DNA of 64,000 bases from Waddliaceae bacterium. GTDB taxonomy: Bacteria; Chlamydiota; Chlamydiia; Chlamydiales; Waddliaceae. How positions within the stretch are numbered: the first letter of the stretch is position 1; each line of letters begins with the position of its first letter. Below the pieces are notes generated by a model. The model searched no databases and was not told the origin of the DNA. It saw nothing but the letters and a program-made list of their open reading frames with translations. Of this stretch, positions 29,865 through 57,130 are shown in pieces. The DNA is taken from positions 288,001 to 352,000 of the forward strand of contig CAVRUH010000007.1 of NCBI GenBank assembly GCA_963724325.1, in the 5' to 3' direction. The position numbers and the translations under genes were made by a program.

Positions 29865-30060
29865 TTAGTTTGACGCTTACGTATTTCCGGTTTGGAGTGA
29901 CCCAATTTATTGGGTCTTTTTCCGAGCCGAATTTATTCGGCTCGGTGGAGGGCGACACCTTGCCATGCACAGGGCCGAATAAATTCAGCCCTGAAAAAAA
30001 CCTAATGAATTAGGTCACTCTCAAATTAGACTGAGCGTTGAGTTAGGCAACGGCTCCGGT
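29865..30060. repeat. multi-hairpin palindromic element, type A monomer
   Basis: TTTGGAGTGACCCAATTTATTGGGTC...AACCTAATGAATTAGGTCACTCTCAAA; ends 7 bp from the stop of paralog 2; lacks 28 bp present in the 218-bp units. Confidence 0.92.
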
Positions 30061-30067
30061 CGTGTGC

Positions 30068-33000
30068 TTATAATATTGCCATGCAGGATTTTTCTTTTAT
30101 TAATATGTTGTATTTGCTCATGGCGGCGATAAGGCCTAGATGTTGAGCACTCTTAGCAATGTCTAGTGCTGTTTTGCCTTTCTTATTTTTGATGTTGAAG
30201 TTTGCATTGGCTTTGAGGAGGCGAAGTGCCGCAGGCATATTTTGGTCCCTGACAGCTTTATGGAGGGGAGTATCACCATTAGGATCTTGAACATCGATAG
30301 GATGTCCGCAGTTAATCAGCTCATCAGCAAGCGCTAATGAAATTAGTTCTGCTCTCTCTTTTTTGTCCATATCAGAAAACCCTTGCAATCCATCAATTGA
30401 TACTACCTTATGCAATGGTGATACGTCCTTTGCATAAAGAAAAATCCCTTTTTTAACGTTGTTTTCATAGGCAAAACGGATCATATCTCTATACATTAAA
30501 AGAAGCTCAGTCGGGTCGTTCTGTTTTTTGAGTGAGTGAGCTATTTTCGATTTTGATATTTCAATAATATGAAGAGGTGTCTGAACATGTTTATTTCTTC
30601 TTCCAAAATTGAGTTGCAAAGGTTCAAGAACTTCTTTCATCTCTTTCCAATTTTCCATCGTTCGACACGTTGTGAAAAATATGTTGTATATTAAGGACAG
30701 TATATTTATTTGCGTATCCTCTGTGATTTTAAAGAGCTCTCTTCTGAAAAGAATGTCAAAAATTTTCTGTCGATTTTTTACGTGAAGATCAAATAAACAA
30801 TATTCATCGCAGACCCGTGGTTCAAACAAACTTTTCAATCCTTGGCTATGGAAGGTTTTTATCTCGTCCTTCGGTTTTTCAACAATCCAACTATTTACAA
30901 GAAAAAAAAGTTTGAGATAGTGGTCCTGAAATTTTTTATCTCCTGACATGCGCGTACATATAACTTCATAAAGATTTTTTGCAGCTACGGAATTCGTGTG
31001 GATCAACCATTCGGGATGTTTTTCATAAAGTCTTTGGAGCATTGTCGTCGCATTTTCTTCACTGGAGAGCATAATTAATGGACGGTGATTCTTCCATGCC
31101 TCATTCGGCAATATTTTTATAATTTCTTCGAGGATATTCATATGTCCTTCCCCGCAGATTTTGATGGCCTGTTCAGCTATTGCACTTCTAAAACCGGATA
31201 AATATTTTATTTTTGAATCATTGCTCATCGAATTGAAGATTTCTTTAAAGAGTCGGAAATCTTCTGCTGTAATTAATTCATTTAGAGACCAGAAAACATC
31301 AGGTGAAGAGTTTCCTAATTTTTTAACGATAAGCTTGATCATTTTTTGTCTCAATGGTGCGTATTTTAATTGTAACGCAGCACGAAAAGGATTTATTGAA
31401 CTCGTAAAGGCGCTTACGCAATCTATCCCTGTTTTTTGTAAAAGAAATTCGACAATGTCAAAGTGTCCCTTTTTAATTGCTGCTACAATGGGTAATAAAT
31501 TTTCATGTTTTATTCTTTGGAGGTGCTTAATGGGCAAATCTCCGATCCAATTCTTGATTTCATTGATTTTGCCAAAATAACAGTACAAAAAGAAACGTAA
31601 ATTAACATCAGAAATGCTGGAAAGGGTTTCGCCGGCATTGAGGAGGATTTCAATAACGTCATCGCAGGTGTCCGGGTCATAGTTCGAAACAACAAGATTA
31701 ATGGGGCGTGTATTATCATATTCTTCAGTTGCTTTCAGGCCTTTATTTAATAAAAATTTTACAGATTTCCCTCTATTTGGAAGCTGTCGTTTGCAAATGA
31801 CATGTAGTAAAGAACGATCTTTAGTAAAATCGGCTTTGAATTCATCGAAAAGGGACAGCCAAGAAAAGATCTTTTCAGCATGAAAATATGTCCTTTCAAT
31901 GTGCCACGATAAGACTGATTTCCCATTTTCAGTAAGAGTGTTGGGATCCTCGCCCGCAACTAACAAAGCTCGAAATAAAGCTAGATCCCATCTACAACTC
32001 CCATAATGCAATTGAGCCATATGGAACGCTGGGGTTTGATATGCTCCTAGATCTTGAAGCACTTGAAAACTTTTAAGTGACCCACAATGCATTAGAATTT
32101 CATTAAAGCATTCCTTTGCAGTTTCCAGGTCGCCATGTTTAGCCAATAATTCGACTACAAATTCTCCTTCATCAATAAGCCTTTTCAGGCAAATAAATTC
32201 TTTAAGCGGCGTATTCCCTTTAACATTCAATGTTGTTACTAATGCACCAGAATTGATCAAAAAAGATAAAATATCTGGTAATTCATCAAGGGATTGGTAA
32301 GTGACAACCTGATGCAGCAACATGGTGATTTCCGCCGGTTTGGCTCCAGCATCAATAATTCTTTGCAAAATTGTTATTTGACACTGCACTTTACATGCCC
32401 CTTCTAAAAGTGCGTTCAGATCGTTTTTTGATAATGGTTTATTTTTTAATGTTAACAATTTGTCGATTGCGGAAAGTTTGTTGATTTTTACAAATTCGAT
32501 TAAAAGGCAAAGTACTAAATCTCTGGTGTCTTCATGACTTTGATCAATGAGTTCATTCAGGCCGCGATCGACAAAATCCGCATAGAATTTAGCGGTTTTT
32601 TTATGAAATACTAGGAGAGCACTGCTTAGGCTCTTCTCGGCAATCATTTCGAAAAAGATTTGTTTATCTGAATCAGGAACTGCCTTCCAGATCCACGTAA
32701 GGTCATCTGGAAATGAGGATAAATCAGTGTTAAGGAGTCTCGCGCAAAGAGCGGGTGCTGGAATCATAGACTTATTTTCTGTATAGAAGTCTAACACTAC
32801 TTCTTTATTATTAGAATGGCACAGAAATCTAAAGGTGATGTAGGTAATTTTCGCTAAGTGGTGATTTTCTACCCTCTTAAGCCATTTCACAACACCATGA
32901 TGAGGAAAGCCTTTTTCCTCAAAAATCTTCGCATCAAGTTCAATTTGTTTGGTCCAGTATGAGGTTGTAAGATCGTTCACTGCAATATTTAGACGCTTAC

Positions 33001-55576: not shown

Positions 55577-56968
55577 ATGGATTATACAGACCCAAAAAAT
55601 TATTCAATACTAAATAGTTATGATTTTTCGGATAAAAATCGCGTTAATTCGTTTTTGGATTGGGCAAGCACCCCCTGCCGCAGAGTCTTAGGCGGTAGAA
55701 ATGTCTATTTAAAGTCCTTACAATGGCATGATAAAATGTCTACTGCAAAAAAGGTGGCAGTCATATTTTTTTCAGTTTTGATTTTCCCTATTGCGATTAT
55801 TTCACTAGCAAGCCTTGCAGTTAAAGTCATTACATTGCCATGGATATGGGAAAAGAAAAAAATGGCATCGCAAGTTACCCAAACAACTAATGCCTACAAT
55901 CAATTTATACTCGCATGTAATCAAAATCGTCATAATGATGCACTTACAGAAATCGCAAAAATACCACAATTAGCCCAAAAAAGGGATGTAAATAACGCTC
56001 TTTTCAATGCAATTAACATGAAAATTAACAATAATGATTCTTGGGACGAGATTCAAGATTCATTAAGACTGCTTAGCACTGGTGATGCTGTTACCTTAAT
56101 CGATCACGCCGTAAAATTGAGATTAGACAATGAATTTAAAAATAACAACGCATTCATGAAAGGGGATGATATTTCAGACTTAATGATAAATTCATTAGTT
56201 GGAAAAGATGCTATTAAGGAGTGCTGTGATAAGTTAATTTCGAGCTCTTTAAATGTCGATGTTGCTTCAGGTAAAGTGGTATTAAATGCTAGAAAGATGG
56301 AATTAGCAGATCATGTTTTCACATACCGCACACGAATGATGCAAAATTTTGCTGAAAATGATGTAGAATATCGCTTGATTCCAATAATTGAGTCAAATGA
56401 AAGAGACAATTTATTCGCACAAAGTAGTAACGCCGGTATGACTTTACAATATAGAATGATGTTTAAATCAATACCCGATATGCGGCAGATTCATGATGCT
56501 TTAGACGATATACGTTCTATAACATTGTTGGGACAGAATGCCTTGGATGCCATTAATAACACTATTTCACAAGCACAATCTATCGATTGGAGCATGATTA
56601 GACAAAACTATGCAACATTTGATAATGCTATTAGAGGGTTGAGCATTTCTCAAGACGATACAAATATTTTAGATTATTATAAAAAATCTTATAATAATGT
56701 ATTCGATTTAATTGATATTTTCTTGAAGGATGAAACAACAGAAGATGATGTAGCAAAGGCAAAAGCCATACAAGAATCCTGTCAACAACCGAATCTAGCT
56801 GATTTACAACAGACACAAGGTTATCAATCTTTATTAGATAGCATGCTGGAGCAATTACATTTACAAAGGGCAGTAACAATAACTGAAATTGAAAAACTAA
56901 TATCAGGGTTTATTCTAACTGAGTCTGAAAAAATTTTTAACAATTTTTTAAACTCCGCTACACTGTAA
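55577..56968 (+). CDS. hypothetical membrane-anchored effector-like protein, paralog B
   Basis: Colinear with 51520-52914; start MDYTDPKNY at 55577 with AGGAG RBS; TTGCTA-18-TATAAT at 55511-55540. Confidence 0.8.
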   Translation: MDYTDPKNYSILNSYDFSDKNRVNSFLDWASTPCRRVLGGRNVYLKSLQWHDKMSTAKKVAVIFFSVLIFPIAIISLASLAVKVITLPWIWEKKKMASQVTQTTNAYNQFILACNQNRHNDALTEIAKIPQLAQKRDVNNALFNAINMKINNNDSWDEIQDSLRLLSTGDAVTLIDHAVKLRLDNEFKNNNAFMKGDDISDLMINSLVGKDAIKECCDKLISSSLNVDVASGKVVLNARKMELADHVFTYRTRMMQNFAENDVEYRLIPIIESNERDNLFAQSSNAGMTLQYRMMFKSIPDMRQIHDALDDIRSITLLGQNALDAINNTISQAQSIDWSMIRQNYATFDNAIRGLSISQDDTNILDYYKKSYNNVFDLIDIFLKDETTEDDVAKAKAIQESCQQPNLADLQQTQGYQSLLDSMLEQLHLQRAVTITEIEKLISGFILTESEKIFNNFLNSATL

Positions 56969-56991
56969 CGTCTAAAAAACTTGATAGCCTG

Positions 56992-57130
56992 AAATTTGGA
57001 GCGACCCAATTCATTGGGTCTTTTTCAGGGCTGAATTTATTCGGCCCTGTGGATGGCAAGATATCGCCGTTCACCGCGCCAATAAATTGGGCACGGAAAA
57101 AGACCCAATGAATCGGGTCGCTCCATAACA
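56992..57130. repeat. multi-hairpin palindromic element, type B monomer
   Basis: AAATTTGGAGCGACCCAATTCATTGGGTC...GACCCAATGAATCGGGTCGCTCCATAACA, 23 bp after the paralog B stop. Confidence 0.92.

Follow-up and report, generated by a model that had tools for sequence, protein, structure and literature searches.

REP doublets forming hairpins (REPINs), which are inverted pairs of repetitive extragenic palindromes (REPs), and the REP-associated tyrosine transposases (RAYTs) linked to them are the closest described counterpart of a repeat family found in 64,000 nucleotides of Waddliaceae bacterium DNA (hereafter the window; positions 288001-352000 of contig C7 in the source assembly G000, GCA_963724325.1, which spans 2.37 Mb and is 85% complete). 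According to the available text of the published accounts, the REPIN-RAYT systems of Pseudomonas, Stenotrophomonas and E. coli comprise extragenic REPs in inverted pairs at most 130 bp apart, palindromes nested in one another that show compensatory changes (PMC3116915; 10.1101/2022.05.22.493013), tandem clusters that include flanking sequence, and a single-copy, adjacent Y1 gene, and Bertels and Rainey proposed two alternative REPIN folds, a long hairpin and a clover (PMC3116915). All of these features recur in the Waddliaceae repeat, which differs in its TGGAGY foot (GTAG or GTGG in those systems), in the two hairpins of the same TTYA apex at each end, and in its chlamydial host; compared with E. 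coli TnpA-REP, the enzyme is distant.

Two other systems resemble it in part. In vitro, TnpA-Mb of Marinomonas MWYL1 reads three of the four loop bases selectively, T at position 1, T at position 2 and A at position 4, and in the available text of that study its T-T-T-A loop, which matches TTYA, and its strand-specific recognition of folded single-stranded DNA agree with what is proposed here, whereas REP-Mb has a GTAG foot and a single hairpin, and activity was shown there in vitro while here we infer it (PMC8266576). The REP listed for Chloroflexus aurantiacus ABY36092.1 has the same 6-nt foot, GGAGTG, followed by a 7-bp stem (PMC6006769 Table S1; the comparison covers the repeat entry), but its stem is GC-rich, its loop has 3 nt, and no second hairpin is listed. 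A term search of that REP table gave no chlamydial entry, the available text of PMC3733652 and 10.1101/279083 contained no chlamydial REP family, and no description of a chlamydial REPIN or REP was found in the literature searched, which consisted mostly of non-subscription papers.

We conclude that the repeat belongs to a REPIN-RAYT system whose foot is not GTAG and whose ends carry two hairpins each, likely acting on folded single-stranded DNA, and give this reading a probability of about 0.82. It is carried by the architecture of the repeat, by its linkage to a Y1 transposase gene in two genomes, by covariation across species around a fixed loop and geometry, and by three kinds of mobile element at the repeat. 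A preliminary description made from the window alone had suggested a REP- or REPIN-like single-stranded substrate of an HUH transposase, and the linked gene in two genomes together with stem covariation in three lineages supports that suggestion. Repeats of this kind were known before, and since nested palindromes with compensatory changes have already been published for REPINs (PMC3116915, available text), its architecture is less surprising than it was first rated.

Repeat architecture and genomic distribution

Each repeat end is made up of four parts, namely the foot TGGAGY, a hairpin of 7 bp whose loop reads TTYA, a linker of five T residues (T5) and a second TTYA hairpin, and a REPIN unit is formed by two such modules, inverted with respect to each other, on either side of a variable hairpin-forming centre. 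Five type A and five type B near-full units, one half unit and one decayed single hairpin were read directly in the window, in agreement with the nested hairpin family of about ten units described before. Matches to the terminal 12-mer with at most 2 mismatches numbered 23 against 4.9 expected, a count reached by none of 100 shuffles. All six hairpins described for the long type A unit were present, as were all the named paired differences by which type B approximates the reverse complement of type A. The AAT-NN-ATT apex was also kept, and it is better described as two A-T pairs closing a TTYA tetraloop; with no loop imposed on the search, the loop was TTCA or TTTA in 134 of 139 hairpins located behind a TGGAGY foot, one chance hit included. 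An Rfam scan of the window assigned the repeat to no family at the gathering score, the sole matches being the two introns described below.

Gene content, together with the family label carried by loci of the nearest relative, indicates a Waddliaceae-type chlamydia as the host. In the whole source genome, a pattern allowing up to 2 substitutions detected 147 terminal hairpins, which group into 38 clusters and occur on 6 of the 11 contigs. Although open reading frames (ORFs) of at least 150 amino acids cover 83% of the genome, 139 of the 147 hairpins were located outside them, and a T run with a second hairpin of the same apex stood behind 143. Inverted pairs at most 130 bp apart numbered 56 among the 147 ends, leaving 35 ends unpaired. 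Clusters were found more often than expected in convergent gene gaps (16 of 38, compared to 164 of 691 background gaps; p=0.019) and avoided divergent ones (2 of 38, compared to 175 of 691; p=0.003). The same kind of pattern search in 401 genomes of the order matched 13, among which real hairpin families occurred in the source genome, in a congener (G195) and in five genomes of genus g132, which belongs to another family.

Folding and covariation

Folded as DNA, type A and type B gave z-scores of -11.2 and -12.8, respectively, and none of 200 shuffles reached either. The type A unit had been described as an overall inverted repeat built from six local hairpins; the hairpins were confirmed, but the long unit reaches its lowest energy as a cloverleaf, with pairing between the two terminal hairpins (-54.4 kcal/mol, compared to -43.5 for six local hairpins). 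Between the left and right terminal hairpins of type A, however, a paired change preserves each local hairpin and makes mismatches in the long-range stem, which bears out the earlier claim that the paired differences preserve the small hairpins.

Covariation was assessed in 27 distinct half-units from the source genome and G195 (alignment A3), chosen from 60 distinct ones as having both hairpins; because seven G195 rows were misregistered in the inner helix, conclusions were drawn from the terminal helix. In that helix 98.8% of cells were paired and 5 of the 6 pairs showed changes on both sides; sliding the partners lowered pairing over the whole structure from 89.5% to 26-57%. Perfect stem arms numbered eight in the source genome, six in G195 and eight in g132, and the stems covary across these three lineages. 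On the foot-bearing strand, a strict hand count in the source genome gave G.T over A.C at 14:2 (p=0.004), a polarity that lends modest support to the use of one strand.

A RAYT-like gene linked to the repeat

The source genome contains a single match to Y1_Tnp (PF01797), at C5:207307-207846 (29.9 bits, cut-off 23). Its product of 180 amino acids carries HYH and Y---NP motifs (YVINNP), has REP_Tyr_transpos as its best family and E. coli TnpA-REP (4ER8) as its closest solved structure, and scores 19.4 bits with the IS200 model, whose cut-off is 55. An array of 15 repeat ends begins about 60 nt upstream of the gene. The genome search for a RAYT-type transposase flanked by these hairpins, as advised in the preliminary description, thus has one Y1 gene as its result. 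In G341, a g132 genome and thus of the other family, a gene 68% identical to it lies between the two halves of the repeat, the left one 141 nt upstream of it and the right one located at the stop codon, and no other observation ties repeat and enzyme together as strongly as this enclosure.

The protein was matched at E<=0.001 in 32 of 301 genomes of the phylum, and a close homologue was present in about 17; the RAYT-like gene is single-copy per genome. Homologues of 38-55% identity across the order are flanked by the same foot and 7-bp stem geometry, with unrelated stem sequences, and a second hairpin with a like apex was seen by eye at 9 of 23 RAYT loci examined. A search of viral contigs with a close RAYT homologue gave no relative, and a plasmid search gave one distant match only (28%).

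With a TGGAGY foot in place of GT[AG]G, the repeat does not belong to the canonical GTAG/GTGG REP families of RAYTs from Group 2 and from Group 3, and the protein, which matches E. coli TnpA-REP at E=4.5e-4 only, is not placed in Group 2 by the rule that asks for E<1e-30 with a RAYT of E. coli or P. fluorescens. A TC dinucleotide 8-7 nt outside the foot occurred in 31 and 32 of 43 distinct flanks of the source genome, but these flanks are not independent and the trend is absent in G195 and g132, and we assign no cut site.

The HUH/Y1 enzyme linked to the repeat likely binds and cuts the repeat ends when their strand is single and folded. By analogy with other TnpA-REP enzymes, it would read the foot together with the T-T-x-A loop, and its substrate would be the local-hairpin, or clover, fold. 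The short units may have been derived from the gene-carrying form through loss of its middle.

Group II introns in the repeat foot

Two of the units in the window are split by group II introns of 1,905 nt, which the preliminary description did not mention. Copy 1 (43761..45665, + strand) starts with GTGCG and ends with CT, its domain 1 matches Rfam RF02005, domain 5 (D5) has an AGC triad and domain 6 (D6) a bulged A, and its reverse transcriptase (RT)/maturase gene (44242..45567, +) encodes 441 amino acids with an intact YADD motif and no detected endonuclease domain (TIGR04416, 312 bits, cut-off 300). Copy 2 (53296..55200, +; RT/maturase gene at 53777..55102, +) is 99.9% identical to copy 1, and a third, truncated copy is located on contig C1. 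The hallmarks of a group II intron, namely the GUGYG start, domain 1, the D5 triad, the bulged A of D6 and a YADD RT, are thus all present. Comparison of filled with empty sites for 10 full copies gave a 3′ end of CU, not AY, and since several relatives likewise end in CU, this end is, judged by sequence, a lineage variant.

All three intron starts in the source genome fall at the same base of the right-hand foot. In G195, eight intron copies, with an RT 83% identical to that of the source genome, are inserted at that same base of that genome's diverged version of the repeat (8 of 8), and by comparison only 1 of 22 empty TCACTYCA sites in the 318 kb around these introns was in a REP, a bias to which counter-selection of insertions in genes may contribute. 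Of the final six exon bases, five pair with the loop of exon-binding site 1 (EBS1), GAGUG(U). Of 54 loci given for comparison, 8 were the G195 copies and 19 were unparsed, and in 25 of the 27 used, 5-6 of the 6 positions at the exon end were seen by eye to pair with EBS1. With this backing from the relatives, sequence pairing is the likely targeting rule. A candidate EBS2 (UUAAU; UAGAU in G195) would match positions -12 to -8, but a single covarying pair is too thin a basis to count it.

The intron has the G-rich strand as its sense strand at each of the 11 sites, though most units offer one target per strand. G-rich sequence is a mark of the leading strand, which serves as the template for lagging synthesis. 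A preference for the lagging-strand template is reported for RmInt1 (PMC8914252, available text). During homing, the EBS1 loop GAGUG would likely pair with the complement of the invariant foot on a strand exposed as the lagging-strand template.

When metagenomes were scanned with the intron RT, one close relative was found (locus L115, 75%), which is inserted in a different sequence and has an EBS1 changed to match; as this nearest outgroup uses a different target, REP targeting appears confined, in the loci sampled, to the branch of two species formed by the source genome and G195. Introns of G348 have 32% RT identity and are of another type. Class C (IIC) was rejected, since it needs a 3-4-bp pairing of EBS1 with intron-binding site 1 (IBS1) and a hairpin replacing IBS2, and here the EBS1-IBS1 pairing is 5-6 bp across the clade; the intron may be of class E. 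According to the available text on the introns that use hairpins (class C after terminators, IIC-attC, and IIB in integrons), they share with the present one an endonuclease-minus RT, intergenic insertion next to stem-loops and a bias to the lagging template (PMC7923331; PMC8919778). It differs from them in the 5-6-nt EBS1 matched to the REP foot, in the CU end in place of AY, and in an RT clade that retargets EBS1 freely. No description of introns homing into REPs was found in the literature searched, again mostly non-subscription papers.

Further observations were made on related insertions. Intron relatives with 55-58% RT identity lie behind exon ends that appear to resemble integron attC sites in their motif, at L131, L132, L146, L147, L152 and L154. 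Other introns in chlamydial or unlabelled records (L124, L128, L115, L047) are also located in palindromic or repeat-like DNA, and that of L047 directly follows a TGGAGTG-foot hairpin of its own genome's RAYT. In the right foot at 30013-30025 of the window, one extra T stands exactly at the intron insertion point, as it does in a second copy at C1:169197, and either the imprecise loss of an intron or simple mutation could have left it there.

On balance, we find it more probable than not that an intron lineage outside class C has specialised on REPINs, with an EBS1 that reads the foot, the single part of the repeat that the RAYT keeps from varying, and that of the mirror-image pair of feet in every unit it always uses the foot on the lagging-strand template. 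The REPIN would then be a hub for three unrelated mobile elements (this intron, an IS that duplicates the inner hairpin, and an IS66-ended carrier), would bear footprints in vivo of REP hairpins opening as single-stranded DNA, and would define a RAYT clade with ends of two hairpins.

Other mobile elements at the repeat

Insertion sequences (ISs) of the IS66 kind have terminal inverted repeats starting with GTAA and an 8-bp target duplication. Type A units are found between 13-nt ends that we take to be of this type, with a left end at 43141..43153 (+) and right ends finishing at 29880, 33193, 43374, 43592 and 45715 in the window. Both outward ends were present at 6 of 17 type A clusters, 3 of which had exact 8-bp duplications, and no IS66 transposase (PF03050) was found in the 85% complete assembly. 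The tandem period of 215-218 nt equals one REPIN plus one right end, and type A owes its multiplication mainly to capture between ends of the IS66-like kind and to head-to-tail amplification. As type A, the commonest unit, has spread at least partly in these ways, its copy number is no measure of RAYT activity. Long tandem arrays of type A at C1:769361-774613 (34 ends) and C7:385051-386593 (14 ends) have a CRISPR-like period and no variable spacers; a CRISPR reading of the arrays was ruled out by this and by the dispersed inverted pairs.

A second IS has the inner hairpin as its insertion site, the 22 nt of which it duplicates (C1:772305-773790, 879427 and 933760-935245), and it does likewise at unrelated hairpins. 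The REP-targeting ISs covered by the available text of PMC1525189 are likewise mobile elements landing in REP DNA; unlike those DNA elements, the main passenger here is a retroelement, and the hairpins in which the IS lands include unrelated ones.

Weighing of explanations

Several observations weigh against a REPIN-RAYT system. The all-local fold is 9-19 kcal/mol less stable than the long-range cloverleaf, the shuffle used for covariation ignores relatedness while most two-sided changes separate the source genome from G195, and the G.T over A.C ratio is only 25:12 in a looser count (three groups, chance hits included) and 0:3 in G195. The Y1 protein scores 79.3 bits with NF047646, 0.7 under the cut-off of 80, its match to E. 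coli TnpA-REP is distant, as given above, and repeat ends were found only on the 5′ side of its gene, with none downstream. G195 has the repeat, and two queries of its 97% complete assembly found no close RAYT, while 4 of the 5 g132 genomes have the repeat but only a distant RAYT type (~40-54%) flanked by other hairpins. The GC skews used to assign the intron strand are small (0.014-0.075), and no intron-less or repeat-less joint was seen in contigs from 4 of 13 listed sequencing runs, which gave fragmentary cover of 42000-58000.

The unit might instead be kept as an RNA element, either a bidirectional intrinsic terminator or a stabiliser of mRNA 3′ ends, with a merely historical link to a transposase. 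Every terminal hairpin with its T5 passes a terminator scan (16 of 31 sites in 42500-57500, with 11.5 expected in total), and the enrichment of clusters between convergent genes, the G.T wobble excess in the source genome and the persistence of the repeat in G195 without a detected cognate RAYT would all fit. A terminator, however, requires neither an invariant foot, nor a fixed TTYA loop, nor a second hairpin of the same loop, and the enclosure of a transposase gene by the same ends and the lack of an Rfam match also speak against this explanation, which we regard as improbable, although a terminator role can possibly be secondary, alongside a REPIN-RAYT system. The preliminary description had left the choice between single-stranded DNA and RNA open; the first is supported, and for the second there is a terminator-like pattern, which is indirect. 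Marginally less probable is an inert relic, in which the repeat was spread by nothing but carriage in an IS66-type miniature inverted-repeat transposable element (MITE) and tandem duplication, its paired changes coming from template switching in palindromes. The location of type A between 13-nt IS66-like ends, both present at 6 of 17 clusters and with exact 8-bp duplications at 3, agrees with it, as do the tandem arrays that hold most copies and the units at 29.9 and 33.2 kb that were copied along with neighbouring genes; yet type B units and those of G195 and g132 have no IS66-like ends, no IS66 transposase was found, and the gene-enclosing element in G341 already weakens the idea. Template switching predicts perfect palindromes, and yet a T.G pair persists in 43 copies, the asymmetric loop holds a fixed orientation to the foot, and foot and stem length are constant across RAYT homologues with entirely different stems; it may still generate paired changes.

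Least probable, and indeed very unlikely, is that the gene and its ends are an ordinary IS200-like IS with the repeats as its MITEs, and no domesticated REPIN-RAYT system. Two ends closely surround the gene in G341, in the fashion of an IS, close homologues are patchily present (about 17 of 301 genomes), and the same repeat in two families suggests transfer. Against this, the gene is single-copy per genome and its ends are inverted copies of each other, the IS200 model score lies far below the cut-off, as given above, and the motif is Y---NP, that of class 2 (TnpA-REP) in the available text of 10.1101/279083, not Y---Q.

Repeat units and neighbouring features in the window

The near-full units all lie on the + strand. 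A short type A REPIN at 29891..30025 has its central hairpin pair fused by a 28-nt deletion and a slightly decayed right end, and was duplicated with the adjoining ankyrin-repeat gene; its second copy, at 33204..33337, lies within the 3.3-kb tandem gene duplication. The long type A REPIN of 162 nt with six local hairpins (43167..43328) is the first unit of three in a 218-nt tandem array, followed by copy 2 at 43385..43546 and by copy 3 at 43603..43760, whose right foot is split by intron 1 and resumes with its final 4 nt from 45666. Type B is represented by a 134-nt REPIN with five local hairpins (53019..53152), a unit at 53166..53295 whose right foot is split by intron 2 (final 4 nt from 55201), a unit at 55218..55351, one at 55365..55472 with its last two hairpins joined by an internal deletion, and a slightly decayed one at 56995..57127 flanked by convergent genes. 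The half unit at 52926..52984 (- strand) comprises foot, terminal hairpin, T5 and inner hairpin, and a decayed single terminal hairpin of the same family at 25912..25939, with strand not assigned, lies outside the range first described.

Five consecutive ankyrin-repeat genes occupy 26785-43034, three of which make up a tandem triplication of 3.3 kb that has type A units at two of its joints; a weak match to an F-box was obtained for one gene and a C-terminal leucine-rich repeat for another, and their products look like secreted host-interaction proteins. Type B units follow each of two genes for paralogous proteins of 464-479 amino acids without a Pfam match (51520-52914 and 55529-56968). Between two ankyrin genes, at 38264-38710, there is a different, GC-rich, long inverted and tandem repeat with a 175-nt period, which has only short matches elsewhere in the genome; similar-looking ones flank further Y1 genes of G195. 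A third repeat family, with ~170 loci genome-wide, is found at 12947, 21962-22226, 49046 and 63326. Leucyl-tRNA synthetase is present as two ORFs of 492 and 242 amino acids (59967-62492), possibly because of a frameshift or assembly error.

Significance

To our knowledge, the movement of REPINs has still not been shown in vivo, and the RAYT enzymes tested so far come from gamma-proteobacterial GTAG-type repeats. The Waddliaceae system would add another clade, with an enzyme and a substrate that form a compact pair and offer natural variants of the stem, a fixed loop and a gene-enclosing form. The 11 intron insertions at one base and on one replication strand would serve as a natural reporter, pointing to exposure of the repeat as single-stranded DNA. 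The intron, in turn, shows a retroelement using a repeat tolerated by the host as a renewable landing site.

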